Shown piece by piece: positions 5,223-24,936 of a DNA stretch of 64,000 nt. Source of the stretch: Vulcanimicrobiota bacterium (GTDB lineage: Bacteria; Vulcanimicrobiota; Vulcanimicrobiia; Vulcanimicrobiales; Vulcanimicrobiaceae); NCBI GenBank assembly GCA_963777315.1, contig CAVZQC010000004.1, forward strand, positions 288,001-352,000, in the 5' to 3' direction. Position 1 is the stretch's first letter. Each line of letters begins with the position of its first letter. The notes beneath the pieces were generated by a model that searched no databases, was not told where the DNA came from, and saw only the letters and a list, made by a program, of their open reading frames with translations. A program made the translations under genes and the position numbers.

Positions 5223-7457
5223 TCAGTGTGACAGCTGGGTGGCTCGATAATGAAAACCCAATCTCGGCGGTTGCGCGAAAGCCGGATCGCCGCATTGCCA
5301 GAGCAAGAACGAGTACTCGTCGGTGAGCAGCTGTTCGTTTTGGGTCCGCGAGCCGGCCAGGAAGCCGTGACCGGCGTCGTAATCGACGCGCAGAAGTATC
5401 GGCCGTCCGCTGGTGGTGGCCCGCTGCAGCGCAATCGTCATCTTGGCGAGCTCCCATGACGAAACGCGCGGATCGTTGTAGCCGGTAACCAGCATCACCG
5501 CCGGATACGGCGTTCCGTTCACGACGTGGTGATACGCGTCCATCTCGCGTAATGCGCGGAAGCCCGCCGCGTCTTTCACGGTTCCGAATTCGGGAACGTT
5601 GGGCGGCCCGTTGGGCGTGAACTCCGAGCGCAGTGCATTGCTCACGCCCACCACGTCGAGCGCCGCGGCAAACAGATCGGGCCGTGAAGTAATCGCGCGG
5701 CCGATCGTAATGCCGCCCGCGCTGGTCCCTTCGCCGGCGAGATGCTGCTTTGCGGTGTACCTGTGCTGCACCAGATATTCACCGCACGCGATAAAGTCTT
5801 CCCAAGTGTGATTCTTGGTGGCGATCATGCCGGCCCGGTGCCAGCTTTCGCCGTACCAGCCGCCTCCCCGGGGATGGCAAACGGCAAAGACGCCGCCGCG
5901 TTCGAGCCAGGCAATCCGGGTTGCGCTAAAACCGGGCTCAAGAGTAATGCCGTAGGCCCCGTAACCTTCCAAATACGCCGGATGCGAACCGTCCAAGCGC
6001 AGACCTTTGCGATGCACGATCGACAGCGGAACCATGGTTCCATCCGCGCTTGGTGCCTGCACTTCGTCCGAGGTATACGCGGACGTGTCGACCGAAGAGC
6101 GGCTCTTCAAACCCGTGTCGGTGACGGCGCCGTTCGGATCCGCGAAATAATACTGCAGCGACTGCGTCCAGCCGGTCAACGCGAACACCGCGCCGCCGAC
6201 GCGCGGATCGGTGGCCATCAGCGGGATCGACCCTTGGAAGGGCAGCGTGACGGACGAGGCCGCCCCGGGAGCGCCGTCTTGCGCGAGCGCGATCTTGCGA
6301 ATGCGTCCGAAACCGCCTTCGCGCGAGTGCACGTACAAACCGTCGGCGGCAACGCCGATCCGCTGCACGACTTCTTTGCCTGCGGGCACGACGACGCGCG
6401 CAGCGGCGAGATCGGGCGCAGAAAGCGATGTGGCGATCACTTTGAACGTCGGGGCGTCGCGATGCGTGAGCAGAAAAATCGTGTCGCCTTTGACGTCGAA
6501 GCCCGTGACGTCGTCGGCGTCGCCGGCGATCTTTTTCCATGCCGTCCGCGCTGAAGTGAGCGCATCGGAGTTCACGTCGTAAATGTCGAGTTCATTTTTC
6601 ACGCCGTGGAGGATCAGGCCGAGCGTGTAGTGCGATGCCGGCGAGTACGCGACGATGGGAAAATCCGTCAATGCGAAGTGCATGGCGGGATCGACCCCGT
6701 AGCCGAAGACTGCCGGGTCCTCGTCCGGGTTGCGTCCCAGGACGTGCAGGTAATTTACCGCACGCGTCTCCTTCATCGTCGCCGGTTCACCCGGCGCGAG
6801 CTTGGGGAAGCGAACGTAATAAAACGATTTTCCGTCCGGCAGCCAGGACGTTACGCCGACGAAATACGCGCGTTCGATCGTATCGGGCAGCACTTTGCCC
6901 GTTGCGGTTTCGACGACGCGAATGACGGCGTTTTCCGAACCGCCCTCCGAGATGCCGTACGCAACGTGCGACCCGTCCAGCGAGGGAGAGAAGTAGTTGA
7001 TCGTATAGTGTTTGCCTGCGCTTGCGAGGCTATTGGGATCCACCAGCACCCGCTCGGCTCCGCCGTCCCGGCGCCGCACGTAGAGTTTGGGCGTGTTTTC
7101 GCCCGGTTTGAGCTTTTGATAGAAGTAGTATGGTCCGTCTATCGTTACGCCTGAGACAGTTTCGCCGGCGTTGTCGAGCTGTTTGATGCGCCCAAACAAC
7201 CGTTCCCGGGGCGCTCCGAGCAGAGCAAGGACCTTGCGCGCGTACGCGTTTTGCGTTTTGAAAAAGCGCTGCACAACCGGATCGCTCATGTCTTCGAAGT
7301 ACCGGTACGGATCGGTAACCGCCGTTCCGAAATACGTGTCGGTGACGGGTTTGGGTGCCGGCAGCGGCGGGGGAACCGGGATGGTGCGCGTCGCGGCGCC
7401 GGTTAGTCCGGCCGCGAGCACGACGGTGAAAAGAAGGCAAACCAAACGCAGGCGCAC
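5223..7457 (-). CDS. Prolyl oligopeptidase (S9A), secreted
   Basis: DTYFGTAVTDPYRYFED, GYGAYG, RGGGWYGESWH, GTSAGG nucleophile, NDPRV, AGHG. GTG start at 7457 follows AAGGAG; signal peptide. Confidence 0.92.
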   Translation of the reverse strand: MRLRLVCLLFTVVLAAGLTGAATRTIPVPPPLPAPKPVTDTYFGTAVTDPYRYFEDMSDPVVQRFFKTQNAYARKVLALLGAPRERLFGRIKQLDNAGETVSGVTIDGPYYFYQKLKPGENTPKLYVRRRDGGAERVLVDPNSLASAGKHYTINYFSPSLDGSHVAYGISEGGSENAVIRVVETATGKVLPDTIERAYFVGVTSWLPDGKSFYYVRFPKLAPGEPATMKETRAVNYLHVLGRNPDEDPAVFGYGVDPAMHFALTDFPIVAYSPASHYTLGLILHGVKNELDIYDVNSDALTSARTAWKKIAGDADDVTGFDVKGDTIFLLTHRDAPTFKVIATSLSAPDLAAARVVVPAGKEVVQRIGVAADGLYVHSREGGFGRIRKIALAQDGAPGAASSVTLPFQGSIPLMATDPRVGGAVFALTGWTQSLQYYFADPNGAVTDTGLKSRSSVDTSAYTSDEVQAPSADGTMVPLSIVHRKGLRLDGSHPAYLEGYGAYGITLEPGFSATRIAWLERGGVFAVCHPRGGGWYGESWHRAGMIATKNHTWEDFIACGEYLVQHRYTAKQHLAGEGTSAGGITIGRAITSRPDLFAAALDVVGVSNALRSEFTPNGPPNVPEFGTVKDAAGFRALREMDAYHHVVNGTPYPAVMLVTGYNDPRVSSWELAKMTIALQRATTSGRPILLRVDYDAGHGFLAGSRTQNEQLLTDEYSFLLWQCGDPAFAQPPRLGFHYRATQLSH

Positions 7458-7558
7458 GGCGTATCTCCTTGAGGCGGGCTTCCATATTACAGTCCCTTTA
7501 CGTCCGCCTCCTTGCGCCAAGAGGAGGCTCCTGCGCGTAAGCCTAAAGGCCCATAGCA

Positions 7559-10201
7559 ATGATCCGGCCCGTTGCCGCGGATGGGCGAATCGAAACCGGA
7601 GGCCCATTCACCCCTGTCGTCCGCGCGCGCGTCGTGGACCGCATTTCGTCCGCTGCTTCGCAGCGGATCGCCTTGATCGTTGCCCCCGCGGGTTACGGCA
7701 AATCGGTTGCGCTGCGTCAATACCTGCAAACCGTGGACGGTCCGCACGTGCGTTACGACGTGCGAACCGATCATTCCACGCTGCTGGGTTTCGTGCGCGG
7801 ACTGGCCGACGCGCTGCTGGAGGCCGCACCCGACGCGCGCAAGACCGTTTCGGGCGCTTATGAGAAAAGCCGATCCTCCAAATCGCCGGGCACGGATCTG
7901 GCAATGTGGATGCACGCGCACATCAAGACGTTCACGGGTCTGATCGCCATCGACGATCTGCACGTTGCCGAAAACGATCCCGAGATTTCCAAATTTTTGG
8001 TTTCGCTGATCGAGCGCACTAAAGGGCGCGCGCGCTGGATCATCGCGACTCGGTCGTCCTTGGACTTGCCGGTCGGCTCGTGGCTGGCGTACGGCGACAT
8101 GGATCTGAACATCGACGAGCAAGACCTGCGGTTCACGGTCGACGAGGCGCGCCAAACGGCCAAGGCCTCGCGAGTCGGGGTTCGCGATGAAGAGCTGGCC
8201 GAAATTCTGTCGATGACGGAAGGCTGGCCCACCGCACTCAGCTTCGCGTTGCGGACCTCGACGCGTTCGGTCGATCTGCGAAACATAGCGGCCAGCACGC
8301 GCGAGATGGTGTACCGGTATCTCGCCGAGCAGGTGTACCGCATGCTCGAACAAGACGAGCGCGAGCTGCTGCACTTTATCGCGTATTTGCCCGAAGTCGA
8401 CTTGGAAGTGCTGCGCCGCGCCGGCTACGAAAAAGCCAAGGCCGTCATCGAGGAACTGCGCGACCGCGTCGCCTTTATCTATCCCGACCGGCCCGACGTG
8501 TACCGCTGCCACGATCTGTTTCGGGATTTTCTGCAGCACCAAGTGGAGCTCGAAGGCGACGCCGTCGCCGAACGGATGCAGCGGCGCGTGGCTCAAGCGC
8601 TTGAATCCGCAGGACGCCTTCCCGAGGCGCTGTCCGTCTATACCAAAGCGCGGGCCAACGACGAGATCGTGCGGCTCCTGGAGCTGTACGGCTTCGACCT
8701 GATGGAATACGCGCACGGCGACATCGTGCAAGCGTCGATTGAAGTACTGCCGAAGGAAGTGCGCGCGGTCGATCCGATAGTTTTGGCATTGCGTGCCTCG
8801 AGCGCGCTCAATGCGGGTCGGCTGGATGCTGCCGAATCGCTGTTCGACCGCGCTTTGGAACGGTCCGGCGATTCGATTCTCAGAGCGAAGATAGCGCTTT
8901 CCTTGGCGCTCCTATTGATCAACCAGGGCCGAGACATCATTTCCCTTTTGCAAAGCGTTCGCGATGAGGCACTGCCCAAGGACCTTCTCGGCGAAATCGT
9001 GAGCCTGATGGCGGTAGGATATGCGTACAACGAGCTGCCGGACGACGCCAAACTTGCGATGGCGGAGGCTGAAAGGTTCGTGGCGGAAGTCCAGGCCGAC
9101 GAAGTAAGAGCGAAGATTCTTCAGCGGATCGGCGTGACGGCGTTGAACCTGCAGATGCCGCTGGAAACTATTCTGAACATGCTTACACGAGCCAGCACGC
9201 TCGCGACCGAAAACGCAATGTACGGACTAGCGAGCCGCTCGCTGAACTTCTTGGCAAACGCCATCGAGCTTTACGAAGACAAGGACGACACGGCGAGAAC
9301 CGTATGGTACGCCCAGCAATCCGTGACTGCAGCGATGAAGGCCGGCGATCGCATGAGTTTGCAGAGCGCGCTGCTTCAGCTGGTTCACATCGAAACGAGG
9401 CGCGGTAACCTCGAACGACTGCTCGCGCTCGAGTCGCAGTACATCGCGACCTCGACGACCGATGCTGCCCGTATGGGGTACATCATGCCGGCCAAAGCCG
9501 CAATTGCGGCGTGGGACGGGCGTTTCGACGAAGCGCATCGGATCATTTCGACGGTCGCAGTGAGCAGTCACTATGATTTCGACCGCGCGTTCGACGACGC
9601 GGTGCAGGCACTGTACTTGGTAGCCGATGGCCAACGCCAGCGCGCTCTGGATCTCTCGACGCGGACGCTCGCGCAACTGCAGAATTCGAGCTTTCGATAC
9701 ACCTATGGTAAGCGCATGGGCGACATGGGGCGAATGGTGTGCGCGATCGTTGAAGCTTTGGCCGGCCGGACCACTAATGCCAAACGGATCTTACAGCGCA
9801 AGCCCGAGGACGCATCTCCGTTTGCCGGCGCTCTCCACGAGGTTGCCCTGGCGTGTACGCGAGCGATTGGTACTCCGACGCTGCGGGACGATGCGAAGGA
9901 AGCGTTGGACCAGTTATCGGCGGTCGGCTACGGGGGAATCAGCCGGACCATCGAAAAGGCGCTGGAACGTTGCCTGAAGTCCGAGGGTGCGGTCTCAGGC
10001 GTCTCCTTGACCACAGCGGAGAGCGAAGTGCTCAAGGCGCTCGCCGACGGCAAGAGTCCAAAGGACATTGCCCTTGAAACCGGCCGCAGCGTGTATACGA
10101 TTCAAGCCCACGTGCAGAACCTCATTAAGAAGTTAGGTTGCAGTGGGCGTAATGAGGCTCTGAAGGTGGCTCGTAAGAAGGGCCTAGTGAACTTTAATTA
10201 G
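7559..10201 (+). CDS. MalT-like STAND ATPase / LuxR-family transcriptional regulator
   Basis: Walker A APAGYGKS, IAIDDLH, TEGWP, YRYLAEQV, helical TPR-like middle, C-terminal LuxR HTH (LTTAESEVLKALADGKSPKDIA...TIQAHVQNLIKKLG). Confidence 0.92.
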   Translation: MIRPVAADGRIETGGPFTPVVRARVVDRISSAASQRIALIVAPAGYGKSVALRQYLQTVDGPHVRYDVRTDHSTLLGFVRGLADALLEAAPDARKTVSGAYEKSRSSKSPGTDLAMWMHAHIKTFTGLIAIDDLHVAENDPEISKFLVSLIERTKGRARWIIATRSSLDLPVGSWLAYGDMDLNIDEQDLRFTVDEARQTAKASRVGVRDEELAEILSMTEGWPTALSFALRTSTRSVDLRNIAASTREMVYRYLAEQVYRMLEQDERELLHFIAYLPEVDLEVLRRAGYEKAKAVIEELRDRVAFIYPDRPDVYRCHDLFRDFLQHQVELEGDAVAERMQRRVAQALESAGRLPEALSVYTKARANDEIVRLLELYGFDLMEYAHGDIVQASIEVLPKEVRAVDPIVLALRASSALNAGRLDAAESLFDRALERSGDSILRAKIALSLALLLINQGRDIISLLQSVRDEALPKDLLGEIVSLMAVGYAYNELPDDAKLAMAEAERFVAEVQADEVRAKILQRIGVTALNLQMPLETILNMLTRASTLATENAMYGLASRSLNFLANAIELYEDKDDTARTVWYAQQSVTAAMKAGDRMSLQSALLQLVHIETRRGNLERLLALESQYIATSTTDAARMGYIMPAKAAIAAWDGRFDEAHRIISTVAVSSHYDFDRAFDDAVQALYLVADGQRQRALDLSTRTLAQLQNSSFRYTYGKRMGDMGRMVCAIVEALAGRTTNAKRILQRKPEDASPFAGALHEVALACTRAIGTPTLRDDAKEALDQLSAVGYGGISRTIEKALERCLKSEGAVSGVSLTTAESEVLKALADGKSPKDIALETGRSVYTIQAHVQNLIKKLGCSGRNEALKVARKKGLVNFN

Positions 10202-10268
10202 GTACACCCACGCCGCGAGGCTGTATTCTTAAGGAGAAGCTACTCTTATATAGGAGCGAATTCGCAAC

Positions 10269-10346
10269 ATGATCACCGCCTTCGCCGTGGCCGCCCTGCT
10301 CGGCCTAATCATCTGCTCCGGTATCTCGCCGGGCACAGTCGGCTAG
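10269..10346 (+). CDS. Putative 25-aa secreted or membrane peptide MITAFAVAALLGLIICSGISPGTVG
   Basis: ATG 10269 to TAG 10346; AGGAG at 10252-10256; hydrophobic core plus Gly/Pro tail; fills the LuxR-HD-GYP gap; below the ORF track cutoff. Confidence 0.6.
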   Translation: MITAFAVAALLGLIICSGISPGTVG

Positions 10347-10377
10347 CGCTACTCCCAAAACACGTAGGAACGCGAAC

Positions 10378-11361
10378 ATGGAAGTGTACACCTTGCCGGC
10401 CGCCGCGTCGGTACTTTCAGGCGACCTTCGCCGTCTGACCAAACTCGTCGTCGAGCATTTGCACGACCCGAGTTTGTTTGCCGATCCGGCCCTCGAGTCG
10501 TCGATGGAGCTGATCCTGGACCGGTTCTGTCTCTCGGTCCAACTTTCCAAACCCGTGGGCTTGGCAACGTGGGCCGTTCGCGAGGGACGCCGGCTGGGAA
10601 CCGCGCGTGCGTCGGTGCTGGCAGATGCCGCGGCGCACGTTATCGCCAGCGAGGCATCGCGCTTCCATATCGATCAGGGCCGCCTGCTGGCGCTGCTCGA
10701 AGTGCTCAAGACCGAGATTCGCTCGGCCTTGTCGGCGCTCAGCGATACGCCGGACGAACCACGTTCGGCCTATTCGGAAACCGCTACCGCGCTGCTCGCG
10801 CTGCTGGGCGAGCGCGATAACCAAACGTGCTGCCATTCCAAAGCCACGGGCGAGTGGGCGCGGCGGTTGTGCGCCGCGATGGGACTGGCCAAGGAGCGGG
10901 CCGAGTTCATCGAGTTGTGCGCGATATTGCACGACATCGGTAAGATTTCAACGCCCGACGAAATTTTGTTCAAGCCCGCGGCCTTGAGTGCCGGCGAATG
11001 GGAAATCATGCGCGACCATTCCGCCGCGGGTCAGCGAATTCTCAATCAGATTCCGTCCCTGGCGCGCTGCGCGTCGATCGTGCGCGCGCATCACGAACGC
11101 TGGGACGGACAGGGCTATCCCGACGCGCTGGCGGGCGAAACGATTCCGTTCGAAGCGCGCGTCGTGGCGGTGGCCGATGCCTTTCATGCCATGATCAGCG
11201 ATCGCCCGTATCGCAAGGCGATCGCGCCGCGCCGGGCCTTGGAGATTCTGGAGTCCGGCCGCGGCACGCAATGGGATCCCTTCGTCGTGGATGCCATGCT
11301 CGGGCTGTTCAGCGGCTCGCGCAAACAGCAAGCGCCGCAGGTCCGGGCCTCCAGCGCGTAA
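10378..11361 (+). CDS. HD-GYP cyclic-dinucleotide phosphodiesterase with helical N-terminal domain
   Basis: LHDIGK, HHERWDGQGYP, VADAFHAMISDRPYRKA. Confidence 0.92.
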   Translation: MEVYTLPAAASVLSGDLRRLTKLVVEHLHDPSLFADPALESSMELILDRFCLSVQLSKPVGLATWAVREGRRLGTARASVLADAAAHVIASEASRFHIDQGRLLALLEVLKTEIRSALSALSDTPDEPRSAYSETATALLALLGERDNQTCCHSKATGEWARRLCAAMGLAKERAEFIELCAILHDIGKISTPDEILFKPAALSAGEWEIMRDHSAAGQRILNQIPSLARCASIVRAHHERWDGQGYPDALAGETIPFEARVVAVADAFHAMISDRPYRKAIAPRRALEILESGRGTQWDPFVVDAMLGLFSGSRKQQAPQVRASSA

Positions 11362-11393
11362 GCGATTCCCACATACCGGGTCGTGGGCAGACG

Positions 11394-11428
11394 GCGCGCC
11401 TGACCTCCTCAAGGCGCGCTTTCTTTTT
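11394..11428 (+). terminator. Rho-independent terminator after the HD-GYP gene
   Basis: Stem GCGCGCCT/AGGCGCGC followed by TTTCTTTTT. Confidence 0.75.
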
Positions 11429-11470: not shown

Positions 11471-11911
11471 ATGGACTACATCATCGGAGCGGGGGCCATC
11501 CTGGAAAGCGGCGAGCGCGGCAGCATTACGCCGGCCAACCTGCACGCGCACGTCGATAGTGCGCTCGCGCAGGCGGTCCGGGTAGCGGCGGTGGATTTCG
11601 AGGGCGGTTCCCCAGACTCGCTGCGACGGTTGCTGCTGGTGGCAAAGGGCTGGAATGCCGCGGCGTTCCGTGCCGGCGTCAGCGACAAGCTGCGCGAGCA
11701 GCGGGTGTGCACGCTGGGGGACGTGCTGACCACGCTGGCGCGCGCGGCCGGTGCAAGCGAGGTGCACCTGTTCGCACACTGGCTGCCCGACGAAGCCACC
11801 TGCGCGCAACTGAGCGCTGCGGGTGTCGGTATCGTGACGCATCCCTTAGAAAGCATCCAGGCCGCATCGGTCGTAGCGGGGCAGCGCCGGCGGCGCTGGA
11901 TGGCTGCCTAA
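11471..11911 (+). CDS. Hypothetical protein
   Basis: ATG 11471 (MDYIIGAGAILESGERG) lies after the terminator; host-like codon usage. Confidence 0.6.
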   Translation: MDYIIGAGAILESGERGSITPANLHAHVDSALAQAVRVAAVDFEGGSPDSLRRLLLVAKGWNAAAFRAGVSDKLREQRVCTLGDVLTTLARAAGASEVHLFAHWLPDEATCAQLSAAGVGIVTHPLESIQAASVVAGQRRRRWMAA

Positions 11912-11960
11912 ACTCCGGCACAGCGGGGCCACAGGGTTTGCGGCGACGATCCACAGTAGA

Positions 11961-12647
11961 ATGTTGGATATGCAGCCCGCCCGCGTCGCTGTGGTCGATG
12001 ACGACCGGTTCGTCCGTGAGATGCTCGAGTTGGGGCTCACGCGCGAAGGTTACATCGTGCGAACTGCGGCGGACGGTTTGGCGGCGCTCGATTTGGTGCG
12101 CGCCTGGGATCCCGAAGTGATCGTGCTGGACATCATGATGCCCAAGATCGACGGCGTCACGCTGCTGCCGCGGCTTCGCGAAATCACCCAGGCGCCGATT
12201 CTCATGCTCACGGCCAAAGGCGAAACGGCCGACAAAGTGTCCAGTTTAGGAGCCGGCGCGGACGACTATTTGGTCAAGCCGTTCGTCTTCGAAGAACTCA
12301 TCGCGCGCCTGCAGGCCAAGCTGCGCCGTCCGCAGCTGATCGAAGAACAGGTCCTGCGCTGGCACGAAGTTTCGATCAATCCGGTCACGCGCGAAGCGTG
12401 GCGCGGCCAATCGCGCCTCGATCTCACCCAGCGCGAGTTCGATCTGCTCGAAGTCTTCTTGCGCGAACCGCGGCGGGTGTTCAGCAAAGACCATTTACTC
12501 GAGCTCGTGTGGGGCCACGATTTCGAGGGCGGCCCGAACATCGTGGAAACGTACATTTCCTATCTGCGCGCAAAGATCGACCGGCCCGAGCAGGCGTCTT
12601 CGTTCATTCGCACGGTGCGCGGCGTCGGCTACGGCCTCTCGCAGTAG
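11961..12647 (+). CDS. OmpR/PhoB-family response regulator
   Basis: VVDDD, LDIMMP, LTAK, GADDYLVKPF, LTQREFDLL, IRTVRGVGY. Confidence 0.95.
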   Translation: MLDMQPARVAVVDDDRFVREMLELGLTREGYIVRTAADGLAALDLVRAWDPEVIVLDIMMPKIDGVTLLPRLREITQAPILMLTAKGETADKVSSLGAGADDYLVKPFVFEELIARLQAKLRRPQLIEEQVLRWHEVSINPVTREAWRGQSRLDLTQREFDLLEVFLREPRRVFSKDHLLELVWGHDFEGGPNIVETYISYLRAKIDRPEQASSFIRTVRGVGYGLSQ

Positions 12648-12651
12648 GAGT

Positions 12652-14055
12652 GTGATGCGCCGTTCGCTCGCGTCGCGGCTGGCGTCGTTATACACGCTGC
12701 TGCTGGGTATTACCGTACTGCTGGTGATCGTTGCGTCCTCCATCGCGCTGATCTACGAGCTCTCCGGTTTCAGCAGCGACATCATCATCGCCAAGCACGA
12801 AGAGGCGCGGTTTTTGTCGGCGCGCTACGAAGGCGACGGCATGACCTTGCAGCAAGCCGCGCCGCGCATCGTGCGCGCGCTGAGCGGAATCGGGCTGCAC
12901 GTCGCGGTGTACGATGCAGCCGGCAAGTTTTTGGGCGGCGATCCTGCCGTGCGTCCGGATATCCTCGGCCGCGTCTTGCGCGGAAGCGTCAAATTGGCGC
13001 CGCCGCCTCGCATCGGGGAAGCTGAAGAAGGCGTGCCGGGCCGTTTGCCGATGCGTTCTCCGCCGCATGACTGGTGGCGCATCACGGCGGTTCCGGGCGG
13101 CTATGTCACGTTCGAAGCTTCGGAGTGGATCATTTTTGCCAACCTCGTTCCGTACTGGTGGATCATCATCGGCATCGCGGTGCTGGCAATCGTCGCGTCG
13201 TGGTTCATCGGCCGGTTCTTTTCGCGTCAGGCGCTCGCGCCCGTGACCGAAGTGACGTCGTCGCTGCAGGCGCTTTCTTCCGGCGATTACACCCAGCGCC
13301 GTTTCGTCACCGCGAGCGGCGACGAGATCGGCACGCTCACCCAAGCGTATAACGACGCCGCAGCCAGCGTCGCGGCCGCGATGGAAGAACGGCGCAGCAC
13401 CGAAGCCAGGATGCGGCAGTTCGTCGCCGATGCCGGACACGAGCTGCGCACGCCGCTTACGGTGATCGCCGGGTACATCGACGTGCTGCGCCGGGGAGCG
13501 ATCGAAGAACCCAACGTCGCAAAAAGCATCCTCGGCACCATGGCGCTCGAGAAAGAGCATATGCGCGGGCTCATCGATCGTTTGATGCGGCTGGCGCGCA
13601 TGGATTCGGAAACGCCGCCTGACCGTACCGCGATCGACGTGGCGGCGATGCTGCGCGACCAGTGTGAGGCGGCTCGGCGCTTGGACGAGCGCCTGCAAAT
13701 CGACTACAACGTCGACGGCGTGAAAGAAGTGTATGCCGACCGCGCCGAACTGGGCGACGCGCTCTGGAACGTCGTGGAGAACGCGCTCAAGTACGCACCT
13801 CAGGCGCCGGTGCATCTACGCGCGTATCGGGAAAACGGCAGCACCGTGTTCAGCGTTCGCGACGAAGGACCCGGAATGAGCGAATCGGAGCGCCTGCATG
13901 CGTTCGAGCGCTTTTATCGAGGCGACGCGCGCGGCGAGATTCCCGGAACGGGGCTGGGGCTGGCGATCGCAAAACGTGCCGTCGATCGCGCCGGGGGCAG
14001 CATCGGCATCGAGAGCGCGCCCGGGCGCGGCACGACCGTATTCATCACGCTTTAA
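12652..14055 (+). CDS. HAMP-domain sensor histidine kinase
   Basis: Two TM segments, HAMP, FVADAGHELRTPL, NVVENALKY, DEGPG, GTGLGLAI. Confidence 0.95.
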   Translation: MMRRSLASRLASLYTLLLGITVLLVIVASSIALIYELSGFSSDIIIAKHEEARFLSARYEGDGMTLQQAAPRIVRALSGIGLHVAVYDAAGKFLGGDPAVRPDILGRVLRGSVKLAPPPRIGEAEEGVPGRLPMRSPPHDWWRITAVPGGYVTFEASEWIIFANLVPYWWIIIGIAVLAIVASWFIGRFFSRQALAPVTEVTSSLQALSSGDYTQRRFVTASGDEIGTLTQAYNDAAASVAAAMEERRSTEARMRQFVADAGHELRTPLTVIAGYIDVLRRGAIEEPNVAKSILGTMALEKEHMRGLIDRLMRLARMDSETPPDRTAIDVAAMLRDQCEAARRLDERLQIDYNVDGVKEVYADRAELGDALWNVVENALKYAPQAPVHLRAYRENGSTVFSVRDEGPGMSESERLHAFERFYRGDARGEIPGTGLGLAIAKRAVDRAGGSIGIESAPGRGTTVFITL

Positions 14056-18535: not shown

Positions 18536-20555
18536 TTACGGCTTTCTCAGGTAGCGGTCCAGCCACTGCAGCCATAACCGCGTGAGGATGGCGGTTTGCG
18601 CGGCGTCCGCGGGGCCGTGCGTATTTGCCGGAAAGACGACGAATCGCACGGGTACGCCGCGTTCGTGCAGCGCATGGTAAAACTCGTAAGCTTGCGGAAT
18701 CGGTACGACCGGATCCAAGGTCGTAGCCCATATCAGCGTCGGCGTCGTAACCGCGCGCGCATAGGCGATCGGGGATTGCGCAAGATAGACCGCGGCTCCG
18801 CCCTTTGCATATGGGGAAGTGCCCAAGTAATACCGGTTCTGCACGTTGCTCGTCGACAGCGCGTACTCGTCGATTTCGTTGTTGACGGCCGCCCCGGAGA
18901 CTGCCGCGCGCCAAAAGTGATGTTGGGTAATGAGCCAGCTGGTGAGCAGGCCGCCGTACGACCACCCGCACACGCCGATGCGGCTCGTGTCCGCACCGGG
19001 CAGTTTGCCCACCGCAGCTAGACCGCGCAGAATGTCGTCGGCAGGACCGCTGACCGTGTCGCGATAGATGGCCAATGCAAAAGCGTTTCCGTCGTCGTCG
19101 CTTCCACGATAGTTCGGTTCGAAAACAATGTACCCGTGAGATGCAATCAGCTGCGCGCGCGGCCAAGCTTCCCAGGCAAAGCTGCGAAGGCTCGAATCGC
19201 CGGGTCCGCCGTGAATGTTCACGACGATGGGATACTTGCGGCCGGCCTGCATATTCGGCGGAAACGTGACTACGCCGTACTCTTGGAACCCGCCACGTCC
19301 ATGCCAGCGAATCTCCCGCATAGTGCCCAGCTGCAGGCGTGCCAAAGCATCGTTGAAATGCGTGAGCGCGCGAGGCTTAGCGCGCACGGAGGCCAGATAG
19401 TACAATTCACGAGCGTGATGGGGACCGATACCAAGAAACGCTATAGACCCGCTGTGCGATACGCCGGCGGCGATGCCGGCATCGAACGTGCTGCTCGCGT
19501 ACGAGTCGCACACGACGTTCAAATCGCCCAAATCGAGCCTGCTGGTATCTGCCGTCGAGCGAAAGCAGCCACGCTTGCGCCTTGGTGCGATGGTTCGCGC
19601 ACACGAGCAGTGCGCGGCCGTCCGGCATCCACAACGCGCCGCCCGCGTTGAAATCGAAATGCGCCGTAACGTCGGTGTCGGTCTTTCCGTCGCGCAAACG
19701 CAGGGTGTTGAACGCTAAATAGTTGCCGCTGCGCGCGTACCAATACAGCAGCTTCGATCCGTCCGGCGAGAACGACGGACTGAGCTCCAAACGCGTATGT
19801 CCGGTGAGCTTGCGCAGCCGCCCGGCAGCGACGTCGAGTTCCCAAAGCGTCGAATACTCGTCGTCGCCGCTCAAGGTGTTCGCCACTCGGGTAAACACGA
19901 TGCGCTCGCCGTCGCGCGACCAGACGAACTGCGGCGCAAAAATTCCCCCGCTGTCGGTGGGCGCAAGCGTCCACGAGCCGTGGGTGAGCTCGCGCGCGGC
20001 TCCGCCCGCGGCGGATATCAGCCATAAGTGAATCGGCGCGGTCGGGGAGGTCGCGGTATAGTCGTTGTCGGCCGCATCGAAGAATCCCGGATCGGGAATG
20101 GCCACGGCGGCGGCAAACGCGAGCTGTGCCCCGCCGGGTCGCCAGGCCATGTCAATGACGTCCGAACGGCTGTGCGTCAGCTGCCGAACGCCGTGCGAAT
20201 CTTCCGCGAACAACTGCATGTGCCCGCTCGGGCGATCTTGCTGCAGGTACGCCAGCGTGCTGCCGTCCGGCGACCAGCGCGGATCGGCCACTTCGCCGCC
20301 GCGCGCGACCGTCGTTTGAGCGCCGCCGGCGATAGTCACCAGCACCAGGGCGCTGCGTTCACCACGCCGGACGATAACCGCGACGCGCGTACCGTCCGGC
20401 GAGATCGCGGGCTGCTCGAGGTCCACGATGGCACGCATGTCGGCAATCGCCAGCGTGCGCGCCGCTGCCTGTGCGGTCCAGGGCGCTGCTAACAGCGCTA
20501 AGGATGCAAGTGTGCGAGCAAGAAGTCCGAAGTGTGCGAGTCGGCTTCGTACCAT
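18536..20555 (-). CDS. S9 family peptidase (propeller + alpha/beta hydrolase); +1 frameshift at ~19540; start uncertain
   Basis: PAISPDG/WSPDG repeats, IHGGP, NYRGS, GWSYGG. Halves join as LDGRYQ|RLDLGDLNV. Confidence 0.85.
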
Positions 20556-22543
20556 GAATGCCAGCGAAGAAACCCGTGAATGTCGTTCGGTATCACGTAC
20601 TCCTCGTAGGGAACGTGCGCCAAGCGCAGACGCGCAACGAGATCGACCATCTGATGGAAGCGCACGTTGCGGTCGTCGTCGCCTTGAATCAGCAGTACGG
20701 GCGACTTCCACGTCGAGATGTAGGCGTCAGGCGACGATAGCCAAGCCGTTTTCAGGAACTTGCGGCGGTCGATCTGCTGATACCGCTGCTGCGTGGGCCC
20801 TCCGAACCATTCCGGAAACATCGTCCAATCGTGCACGCCGTGCCAGTCGACGCCCGCCTTGAAAATGTTGGAGTTTTTCGCCAGCGCCAGCGCAGTCAAA
20901 TATCCGCCGTAGGATCCGCCCCATATTCCGATTCGCTTGGCGTCGACGGCGGGATCGCGTTGCAGATATCGCGCGCCGGCCAGCACGTCCTGATACTCTG
21001 AGGCGCCCGCCGGCCCCGCATGCGCCGGATGGTGAAAATCGTGGCCGTATCCGATCCCCAAGCGGTAATTCACCGACAGCACGACAAAGCCGCGGTTCGC
21101 AAGGTATTGGTTTTCTGCGTACCCGTACGTGTAGTAATCGAAGTAATGCCAAGTCAAAAGCATTTGCCGGGGAGGCCCGCCGTGAACGAAGATGACCGCG
21201 GGCTTTTTGGCCGGCGAACCGGGTGAATCGAACAGCTGTCCGTGCACCAACGTGCCGTCGCCGGATCGAAAGGAAACTTCTTTGGGCACCACCAGGCTGT
21301 CGGTCGGGAAGTCGTTCGGTATTTGATCCGCATCGAGCGTTCGCCCATTGTAAACGATCGTGGTGGGCGCTTTGGCGCCGGCTTGAACGTACGCTACGCC
21401 GCCGTCGGTCGCTGCGGGCCACCACTCGCTGTTGGTGCCGCGCGTTACCTCGACCGGCGTTCCGCCGCCGGCGGAAACGCGAAAGATGTGACGGCGATCG
21501 TCGTCGCCGGGAGTGCTCCCGCTGTTTGCCGTGTAGTAGATGCTGGCCAGATCGGGCGATACCGCCGTGTCTTCGATCACGTAGTTGCCGGGCGTGAGAA
21601 GGCGCGGCGTTCCGCCTTGCGCGGCGATTTCGTAGATGTGCGGCCAGTTCGACTGTTCGGAAATGAAGATCAGCCGATCGCCCGCGACCCAATTCAGCTG
21701 CGGGCCTTTGATTTGGGGCAGCGAGTCGCGCAGCGAATCGCCGCTGTGCCAGATCTGACGGCCTTGGCCGCCGGCGGCATCGGCCGTCCAAATGGCCCAC
21801 GTTTGCGGATGGCGCGCGAGCGGATCCTGCGGCGGTCCTCCGCTTCCCGGAATACGCACAAACGCAATGCGCGAGCCGTCCGGCGACCATTGCGGCGAAA
21901 AATCACGCGAGGTGGACGGGGCGAGGTATTCAATCGGCGTATCGCCGTTGCGGTAGAGCCCGATGAAACTGTGGTCGCCGCGATCCGAGGTGAACGCGAG
22001 TGCTTTGCCGTTCGGCGCCCATTGCAGTTCGGAGTCCTCGCCGCGGTCGAAAAATAAGCGCGAAGAGGCTTTACTGCCGTCGATAGGTGCCGACCACACC
22101 GACGGATCCGGATCGTGCACGAATGCGACGGTCGTGCTGTCCGGCGAGATCACCGGAGAATCGCCGTTGCCGAGCGCTTTTGGGGCCCCTCCCGACGTGG
22201 CAATGGAGAAGACTTGGAGCTGCGGCTCGATCGGACTGGAGTTCGGATCGGGCCACGGACGGACTATCCAATTCGAATCGTGCGCGCCGCCGCGCGCGTA
22301 TACGACGTATTTGCCGTCTTTGGACACGGCCAGACCGGTGATCTCCTGTCCATCGTCCGATTGCGAGCTCCACAGCATGCGCGCAGCATAGTTCGGTCCG
22401 GGTGCAAACCAGATGCTGCGAACGCCGCTTTCGTTCAGGACGTAAGCGATGCTGTGGCCGTCGGCGCCTTGCACCAGCGCGGCGGGAAACGGCAGACCCA
22501 ACACTTGGGCCAGCGAAAACAGGGCGGCAAGAAGAACGTGCAC
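20498..22543 (-). CDS. S9 family (dipeptidyl/acylaminoacyl) peptidase
   Basis: PD40-like repeats, VHGGPPRQM, VNYRLGIGYG, GGSYGG, GDDDRNV, HGF. Confidence 0.9.
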   Translation of the reverse strand: MHVLLAALFSLAQVLGLPFPAALVQGADGHSIAYVLNESGVRSIWFAPGPNYAARMLWSSQSDDGQEITGLAVSKDGKYVVYARGGAHDSNWIVRPWPDPNSSPIEPQLQVFSIATSGGAPKALGNGDSPVISPDSTTVAFVHDPDPSVWSAPIDGSKASSRLFFDRGEDSELQWAPNGKALAFTSDRGDHSFIGLYRNGDTPIEYLAPSTSRDFSPQWSPDGSRIAFVRIPGSGGPPQDPLARHPQTWAIWTADAAGGQGRQIWHSGDSLRDSLPQIKGPQLNWVAGDRLIFISEQSNWPHIYEIAAQGGTPRLLTPGNYVIEDTAVSPDLASIYYTANSGSTPGDDDRRHIFRVSAGGGTPVEVTRGTNSEWWPAATDGGVAYVQAGAKAPTTIVYNGRTLDADQIPNDFPTDSLVVPKEVSFRSGDGTLVHGQLFDSPGSPAKKPAVIFVHGGPPRQMLLTWHYFDYYTYGYAENQYLANRGFVVLSVNYRLGIGYGHDFHHPAHAGPAGASEYQDVLAGARYLQRDPAVDAKRIGIWGGSYGGYLTALALAKNSNIFKAGVDWHGVHDWTMFPEWFGGPTQQRYQQIDRRKFLKTAWLSSPDAYISTWKSPVLLIQGDDDRNVRFHQMVDLVARLRLAHVPYEEYVIPNDIHGFLRWHSWYEADSHTSDFLLAHLHP

Positions 22544-24618: not shown

Positions 24619-24936
24619 GTGTACGTTGATGAAATGTTGAATTGCGTGGACTGCGGACGGCAGTTCGCGTTCACTGCGGGCGAGCAGCAGTTCTACGCCA
24701 GCAAGGGTTTCCAAAACAAACCCAACCGGTGTCCGGATTGCCGTCAGGCGCGCAAGCAAATGCGCTCGACGTCGGGCGGCAGCGCAGGCATGGGCGGCGG
24801 CGGGGGACAGCGCCGGGAAATGTACCAAGCGACGTGCAGCCAGTGCGGCGGCGTTGCGGAAGTGCCGTTCCAGCCGCGCGGCGACAAGCCGGTCTACTGC
24901 CGCGACTGTTTCCAGTCTCGTCCGAGCTACCGTTAG
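24619..24936 (+). CDS. Zinc-ribbon protein (zf-trcl-like plus CxxC-x17-CxxC domain)
   Basis: CVDCGRQFAFTAGEQQFY...PNRCPDCR and CSQCG...VPFQPRGDKPVYCRDCF; AAGGAG RBS. Confidence 0.92.
   Translation: MYVDEMLNCVDCGRQFAFTAGEQQFYASKGFQNKPNRCPDCRQARKQMRSTSGGSAGMGGGGGQRREMYQATCSQCGGVAEVPFQPRGDKPVYCRDCFQSRPSYR

Follow-up and report, generated by a model that had tools for sequence, protein, structure and literature searches.

The DNA considered here (hereafter the window) is a stretch of 64,000 nt from contig CAVZQC010000004.1 of a Vulcanimicrobiota bacterium (assembly GCA_963777315.1), the first part of which carries a conserved cassette composed of a MalT-like STAND regulator gene, a short hydrophobic peptide gene and a gene for an HD-GYP phosphodiesterase. 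The host genome comprises 2.8 Mb and is 89.9% complete, and the named relatives are metagenome-assembled genomes of the Baltobacteraceae/Eremiobacterota, a family whose members are mostly uncultured. The three genes follow each other on one strand, separated by gaps of 67 nt and 31 nt (Table 1). These gene positions and gaps, as well as the ribosome-binding site ahead of the short open reading frame (ORF), had been given in the original prediction and were all confirmed on the sequence. The terminator that it placed after the HD-GYP gene fared less evenly: a hairpin with a T-run folds there (z -1.55), but a terminator scanner made no call at this hairpin.

Table 1. Positions of the cassette elements and of the adjoining downstream gene in the window.
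Feature	Position	Strand	Basis
MalT-like STAND regulator, 880 aa	7559..10201	+	Pfam, model, fold matches
18-bp palindromic operator, predicted LuxR helix-turn-helix (HTH) site	10184..10201	.	family conservation, matrix, blind scan
-10 element TATTCT	10224..10229	+	22 nt beyond box; TA...T hexamer conserved
Shine-Dalgarno AGGAG of peptide gene	10252..10256	+	sequence; 12 nt from ATG
25-aa pre-peptide: uncharged hydrophobic segment (residues about 2-16) and Pro/Gly tail	10269..10346	+	
Predicted mature tail ISPGTVG, putative cleavage after C-S-G	10323..10343	+	inference
HD-GYP phosphodiesterase (327 aa); globin-like helical domain at N-terminus (about 1-125)	10378..11361	+	
Probable intrinsic terminator (GC hairpin and T-run), end of peptide-HD-GYP transcript	11394..11428	+	
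Conserved neighbour gene, 146 aa, no family; followed by response regulator/kinase pair	11471..11911	+	

To sample homologous loci, 80 matches were picked by hand at ranks throughout a list of 150, out of a total of 426 matches, and added to 16 loci obtained first. Three of those 16 loci did not include the C-terminus of the regulator and were dropped; after merging of duplicates, 83 distinct loci were available, all with the 3' end of the regulator gene and with the window included. Short ORFs were accepted if they encoded 15-40 aa with at most one Lys or Arg, started no more than about 250 nt beyond the regulator stop, reached a hydropathy of at least 2.2 in a 10-residue window and had Pro among the last eight residues. 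The original prediction hinged on comparable small ORFs beside homologues of the regulator, and a hydrophobic, Pro-tailed ORF matching the rule was found downstream of the regulator in 66 of the 83 loci, window included. The same rule was met at 6 of 1235 sites following ORFs of at least 400 aa in the host genome, the window locus being one of the six; since the rule was written after part of the loci had been inspected, the comparison is not blind. Among the 17 loci outside the rule, there are eight clear variants and one frameshifted gene (L060), whereas L079, L083, L086 and L093 have no room for the gene, and L048, L081, L084 and L095 are unclear or empty.

The peptide ORF is under coding selection. 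In 20 non-overlapping pairs of equal length (428 codons), differences are distributed over codon positions 1, 2 and 3 as 132, 89 and 200, with a ratio of nonsynonymous to synonymous substitution rates (dN/dS) of 0.37, and 80 of the 108 substitutions in peptide residues 4-14 remain aliphatic, Phe or Cys. A Shine-Dalgarno-like motif precedes 60 of the 66 peptides, which are 20-39 aa long (25 aa in the window). A collection of 15 billion called proteins contains the regulator, the HD-GYP protein and the peptide of one homologous locus (L003), but no exact copy of the window peptide; the latter has no Pfam or NCBIfam match, and a tblastn search with it detected no paralogue in its own genome. The cassette is real and conserved.

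The regulator starts with a NOD module (Walker A VAPAGYGKS, residues 41-49; Walker B LIAIDDLH, 128-135), followed by an arm (~334-436), a TPR/SUPR-like sensor (~437-811) and a LuxR HTH (816-870). Pfam recognizes GerE and AAA_22, with weak TPR matches below the cut-off and no match to PF17874. In a structure model built from an alignment of 75 sequences, which omits the eight loci without a full-length intact regulator ORF (pLDDT 90.7), the NOD-arm part matches MalT (8bob, Z 36.0) and the archaeal STAND protein PH0952 (Z 24.8). Sensor residues of about 440-810 match MalT domain III (1hz4, Z 21.9, root-mean-square deviation 4.6, 323 residues aligned) and the peptide-binding TPRs of the Rap and NprR proteins (Z 17-20.5; Rap-Phr 8rsu 20.5, NprR 5dbk 18.0). 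Both Walker motifs are intact in 75 of 75 full-length homologues. The earlier description of a MalT-like STAND-LuxR protein with a TPR-like sensor is therefore borne out by Pfam and fold matches. The regulator is MalT-like in architecture and not a MalT orthologue: a hidden Markov model (HMM) hit to MalT has an E-value of 5.6e-22, and the MalT equivalog PRK04841 of NCBIfam scores 154 bits, below its cut-off of 537. Homologues with E<=1e-30 were detected in 268 of 296 genomes of the host family and in four of five from one sister family, with none in the other families of a 401-genome sample of the phylum, a tally that takes in six unpublished genomes, whose sequences support no other statement made here. 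No relatives were found in the viral contigs searched. In G334, G043, G392, G061 and G081 (loci L027, L028, L029, L031 and L035), as well as in G195, the peptide is preceded by a tandem pair of regulator paralogues.

Each peptide is built of an uncharged hydrophobic segment, with apolar runs of 12-19 residues in most cases, and a tail, whose first Pro lies 15-22 residues from the start of the peptide and 3-7 before its end. A Pro-Pro pair is present in 48 of the 66 peptides, and the tails are clade-specific (PPDPF/L, PP[ST][IV]G, PPTGMG, MPAN). A site with small residues at -3 and -1, which we take to be a signal peptidase-like cleavage motif, precedes the tail Pro at a distance of 1-5 residues in 48 peptides out of 62 (four longer than 29 aa were omitted), against 36.7 +/- 3.4 in shuffled sequences, with related peptides not being independent. 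The original prediction had proposed an export-like segment with SGISPGTVG as the possible signal. The conserved Pro-containing tail agrees with it, but the putative cleavage site makes the seven-residue ISPGTVG likelier than this 9-mer; similarly, the hydrophobic core and the cleavage-like site fit export, but a classical Sec signal would also have a basic n-region, and none of the 66 peptides contains Lys or Arg, although the rule permitted one such residue. Units of the tail may be repeated. For example, the leaderless L005 carries an 8-residue core three times in tandem (VPVGGA units), and precursors of the L045-47/L057/L063 clade contain two tail-motif units, which points to a short core as the functional unit. 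Neither L005 nor L002 has a proper hydrophobic anchor. A lipoprotein reading of the window peptide was rejected, as the position of Cys is not fixed among homologues.

Upstream of the peptide, 66 of the 83 loci possess an 18-bp palindrome with the family consensus CTACTTAAATTTAAGTAG; the copy in the window, CTAGTGAACTTTAATTAG, overlaps the regulator stop codon. On average, 6.8 of nine positions are paired (2.7 in shuffled sequences), and a conserved -10 hexamer (TA...T) follows 22-23 nt past the box. Four loci (L007, L008, L010 and L015) have the ATG about 6-7 nt after the -10 element and are apparently leaderless, with the operator inside the last codons of the regulator gene; this distance fixes the spacing to the start site and puts the box centre near -43.5, which is where a class II activator would sit. 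The window box is the top site of the 2.8-Mb genome for a matrix from which the window had been left out (26.5 bits; the next sites score 18.7, 18.7 and 13.8). A blind pattern scan allowing two mismatches found the box in 12 of 101 genomes, at one site each, compared to two genomes for the reversed control, and all 12 boxes are located at the 3' end of a regulator gene with HD-GYP in the locus. Six of these loci lie outside the training set. The peptide is intact in four of them; in the other two it is frameshifted, and so are neighbouring genes in the assemblies concerned. At the genomic level, the palindrome thus stands at activator distance from the predicted promoter of the peptide and HD-GYP genes, as an operator of the autoregulatory type, and the LuxR HTH of the regulator probably binds it. 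Box divergence follows the HTH more than other domains (partial rank correlation 0.40, among kin that are not independent), which is no more than suggestive.

Two more box-like sites (18.7 bits) were observed in the host genome, at G000:C2:154711 (L098) and G000:C1:15522 (L099), each with a -10 element at the matching spacing. Each also has a structured non-coding stretch of 90-120 nt (z -2.3 and -2.8); these are candidate small RNAs with no match in Rfam. Genome G199, from the same genus, contains the RNA body of L099 with 82% conservation, in a different context and without a box.

The third gene product has a Pfam HD_5 match and an HD-GYP fold (4mcw, Z 23.2). The motif residues H153, H185-D186, H214, H238-H239 and D267, as well as GYP and RPYR, are each kept in at least 91% of 58 homologues; we take these to be the metal ligands (H, HD, H, HH, D), the GYP loop and the Rxx(R/K) motif of the family. 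The protein may degrade cyclic di-GMP (c-di-GMP), but its substrate specificity may differ, since 94% of the homologues have H270 at a position where Asp is, as we assume, usual. The N-terminal domain resembles non-haem globin sensors (3pmc, 3zta and 2bnl) with Z of 11-12, modest for a helical fold. An HD-GYP gene is located downstream in 61 of the 83 loci, mostly 5-48 nt after the peptide. The proposed link to cyclic-dinucleotide turnover holds to this extent, but the enzyme is accessory: 15 loci, mostly from one clade, keep the peptide with no detected HD-GYP (in L094, where the sequence stops 399 nt past the regulator stop, possibly because of the contig end). The peptide thus stays with the regulator rather than with HD-GYP, so that regulator and peptide form the core and HD-GYP the usual output. 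An 18-locus clade (L067-L070, L075-L077 and L079-L089) lacks HD-GYP altogether; 13 of its members keep a PPDP-type peptide and five have lost the peptide. A read-through fusion of the peptide to HD-GYP was rejected, as their relative frames are random (20/12/19).

The host genome encodes two paralogues of the regulator. The first, a STAND-LuxR protein (L098), is directly followed by an S53-peptidase-like lipoprotein (G000:C2:153178-154374; the S53 label comes from sequence reading, with no HMM behind it), which has three DSPSALP units in its N-terminal tether. The second (L097), a STAND protein with no LuxR match, is accompanied by HD-GYP and, on the minus strand, by a convergent ORF that encodes a signal peptide and eight DSASALP units (G000:C1:234829-235250); a GGDEF match lies just upstream, and among the 11 GGDEF matches of the genome two are beside regulator paralogues. 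In a sister sample of 42 loci (40 fetched from a list of paralogues and the two of the host), a hydrophobic segment with tandem Pro-containing units (2-8 cores) was present in 17 of the 21 loci sampled from the S53-type subfamily and in 9 of 21 loci of the other, against 3 of 300 random stretches. The units vary by locus (DNPSALP, GTPQALP, EGANALP, PFPVSI, AIPSS, DIPHAMP, DSGAAVP). These precursors are of the signal-peptide or lipoprotein type, with ordinary basic signal peptides, which makes export plausible for the wider family. Precursors like that of L097 were also seen in L134, L138 and L139.

Co-occurrence of the parts, coding selection on the peptide and an operator near the promoter are established at the level of genomes. 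From these we lean, with modest confidence, towards a mechanism in which the processed tail of the peptide is sensed by the MalT/TPR sensor in an autoregulated loop with c-di-GMP output. The tandem cores of relatives and the sensor match to the peptide-binding TPRs of Rap and NprR speak for it as well. The LuxR HTH on the palindrome would direct class II activation of transcription, and the hydrophobic segment would bring the pre-peptide to the membrane, where a signal peptidase or an M50 protease could free a Pro-containing tail of 6-9 residues (ISPGTVG in the window). The tail may then re-enter through an Opp/Dpp-type importer and occupy the arm-sensor cavity, where it would act like maltotriose in MalT and set off nucleotide exchange and oligomerisation; the oligomerised regulator on the palindrome would raise the output of peptide, as feedback, and of HD-GYP, so that c-di-GMP falls. 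Activation is favoured over inhibition: it takes up most of the confidence that we place in tail sensing, inhibition by the tail, as in Rap-Phr, accounting for a distinctly smaller part of it. The host genome has 13 SBP_bac_5 matches, one OppC and two M50 proteases, and no match to PF03412, the C39 peptidase domain of double-glycine peptide exporters (at 89.9% completeness). Such import and processing genes are common to many bacteria.

Several observations weigh against sensing of a processed tail. The regulator is kept without the peptide in L079/L083/L086, L081, L084, L093 and L095, and in 13 loci of the 18-locus clade no box is detectable, so that with HD-GYP gone this clade has no visible output. 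The complete absence of basic residues is unlike Sec signals, 6 of 62 peptides have Asp or Glu among their first five residues, and the tails of L036 and L053 have no Pro. Covariation of the tail with the TPR region, a check suggested in the original prediction, is slight over all pairs (L052 omitted; partial correlation 0.25 for the arm and 0.11 for the sensor, but 0.15 for NOD) and not significant in 23 independent tail-sensor pairs (rho 0.19, p 0.38), and was therefore not used as support. Furthermore, a shared TPR fold by itself shows no function, the ligand of the MalT sensor is a sugar, maltotriose (PMC4381067), and the outer membrane of a cultured family member (PMC9758169) adds a barrier to re-import.

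The most serious alternative, which we nevertheless regard as unlikely, is that the peptide is a small membrane protein of the same cell, oriented N-out/C-in or cleaved within the membrane, whose tail tethers or tunes the regulator; the system would then be an intracellular feedback or a sensor of membrane state rather than cell-to-cell signalling. The missing n-region (66/66), the early acidic residues and the long apolar runs would all suit such a protein, and MalT itself is subject to control by proteins that sequester it, for example MalY (PMC4381067). It is harder to reconcile with L005 and L002, which lack a proper anchor, the former consisting of three tandem cores, with the cleavage-like sites enriched ahead of the tail, or with the clearly exported multi-core precursors of the sister subfamilies.

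It is less probable still that the peptide is a product of the regulon read by another receptor, namely the globin-like N-domain of HD-GYP or the downstream kinase, with the regulator sensing a metabolite as MalT does. The conserved N-domain of HD-GYP would be consistent with this, as would the non-significant tail-sensor covariation and the presence of a response regulator in 38 and a histidine kinase in 30 of the 83 loci (in the window, they follow the 146-aa gene within the block 11471-14055; counts limited by locus length). However, the peptide is retained after the loss of HD-GYP, the two-component pair is retained after the loss of the peptide, and sister precursors adjoin STAND paralogues elsewhere in the genome.

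That the ORF is a cis-acting leader peptide, controlling HD-GYP by Pro-Pro/Pro-Gly stalling or attenuation, appears quite improbable. The ORF is first in the transcript, has Pro-Pro in most loci and is separated from HD-GYP by a short gap, as expected for a leader; yet the peptide is also kept where HD-GYP is absent and a hairpin directly follows, the structure of the leader RNA is unremarkable (z 0.67), the frame relative to HD-GYP is random, and stalling needs neither a hydrophobic segment nor tandem cores. Finally, a chance ORF in an intergenic spacer, for which the short length and the absence among called proteins might speak, is refuted by conservation (66/83 vs 6/1235), codon-position bias and dN/dS, leaving it a negligible probability.

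Tail sensing by the regulator would resemble known peptide systems in part. The RRNPP systems are delimited by a propeptide of 10-100 aa, a TPR-containing receptor of 250-500 aa and adjacent genes (PMC10075063). The cassette shares the small peptide, the adjacent gene and the TPR-type fold of the sensor, and differs in its 880-aa receptor, which lies outside this size range and runs from a STAND ATPase at the N-terminus to a LuxR HTH at the C-terminus. RRNPP receptors typically have an N-terminal XRE-type HTH. With respect to the RRNPP secretion criterion (Sec/PptAB), the cassette offers a hydrophobic core and a cleavage-like site with no basic n-region; moreover, RRNPP hosts are Bacillota, whereas here the host family is a diderm one of the Eremiobacterota, the peptides have no basic residue and the direct output is an HD-GYP enzyme. 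For Rgg-SHP and ComR-ComS, the mature peptide is described as the C-terminal part, processed by Eep, imported by Opp and acting back on the peptide promoter (PMC13361665), and by analogy the cassette appears to work like these systems, yet it is no RRNPP member. Duplicated cores are known from Phr pheromones of the Rap-Phr systems (PMC11343458), as some variants of the cassette duplicate or triplicate the tail. RopB-LCP sets a precedent for the missing n-region, as its hydrophobic peptides are exported and re-imported with no classical signal (PMC10518010); LCPs are unprocessed peptides of 8-10 aa acting on Rgg-type receptors, in contrast to 20-29 aa with a separate polar Pro tail here.

Among regulators of other types, MalT/LAL activators share the NOD-arm-SUPR-LuxR architecture, but the inducer of MalT is maltotriose (PMC4381067), whereas the cassette has a single 18-bp palindromic operator and a neighbouring peptide gene. 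LuxR-LuxI systems likewise combine a LuxR HTH with a palindrome near -43 at the signal gene; the lux box sits near -43 and drives that gene. The regulator has no autoinducer-binding domain and no synthase, and the candidate signal is ribosomal. The original prediction knew of no such system for MalT-type regulators, and our literature search of open papers found no description of the module or of a peptide-sensing MalT/LAL regulator; the available text of PMC9765709 and PMC12700828 does not mention MalT. The published RRNPP detector was applied to Firmicutes and viruses with receptors of 250-500 aa (PMC10075063), and because of this taxon scope and size limit it would miss the cassette.

The function of the cassette, and with it a possible new receptor class and new phylum for RRNPP-like logic, is read from genomic data that are strong but indirect. 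If the peptide is the ligand, STAND/MalT proteins would join the receptor classes for bacterial peptide signals, where cytoplasmic receptors have so far been described from Bacillota (RRNPP); the Eremiobacterota would gain their first communication system, and candidate ligands would become available for orphan MalT-like regulators, present in 268 of 296 sampled genomes of the host family. The proposal is directly testable: besides an operator, a promoter and a predicted tail, there are over 60 natural pairs of receptor and peptide whose tails differ. More tentatively, and slightly short of what we would ourselves expect to hold, Baltobacteraceae may have evolved peptide channels independently of RRNPP, with NLR-like STAND ATPases as receptors in several paralogous subfamilies per genome and with short Pro-containing cores delivered in one of three forms (micropeptides with leader and tail, secreted precursors with several cores, or S53 tether repeats), all feeding c-di-GMP. 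In that case a diderm phylum would use cytoplasmic receptors for peptide quorum sensing, and a STAND protein would sense a self-peptide.

Downstream of the cassette, the 146-aa gene occurs in 68 of the 83 loci, including loci without peptide and HD-GYP, and has no Pfam, NCBIfam or usable Atlas match; together with the two-component pair it is probably context and not part of the cassette. Predicted S9/prolyl oligopeptidases cluster around the cassette (5223-7607 and 18536-22543, Pfam-confirmed for the first only). The divergent enzyme at 5223-7607 was considered as a processing enzyme and is not treated as part of the cassette, since it was detected in 2 of 83 loci (with upstream flanks of only 1.5-4 kb). 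Elsewhere in the window, positions 66-1144 hold the 3' portion of the gene for a large ATPase/TPR/BTAD regulator, which a split or frameshift seems to separate from the ORF just ahead of the window (G000:C4:286288-288063), and positions 24619-24936 encode a small CxxC zinc-ribbon protein with two Cys clusters.

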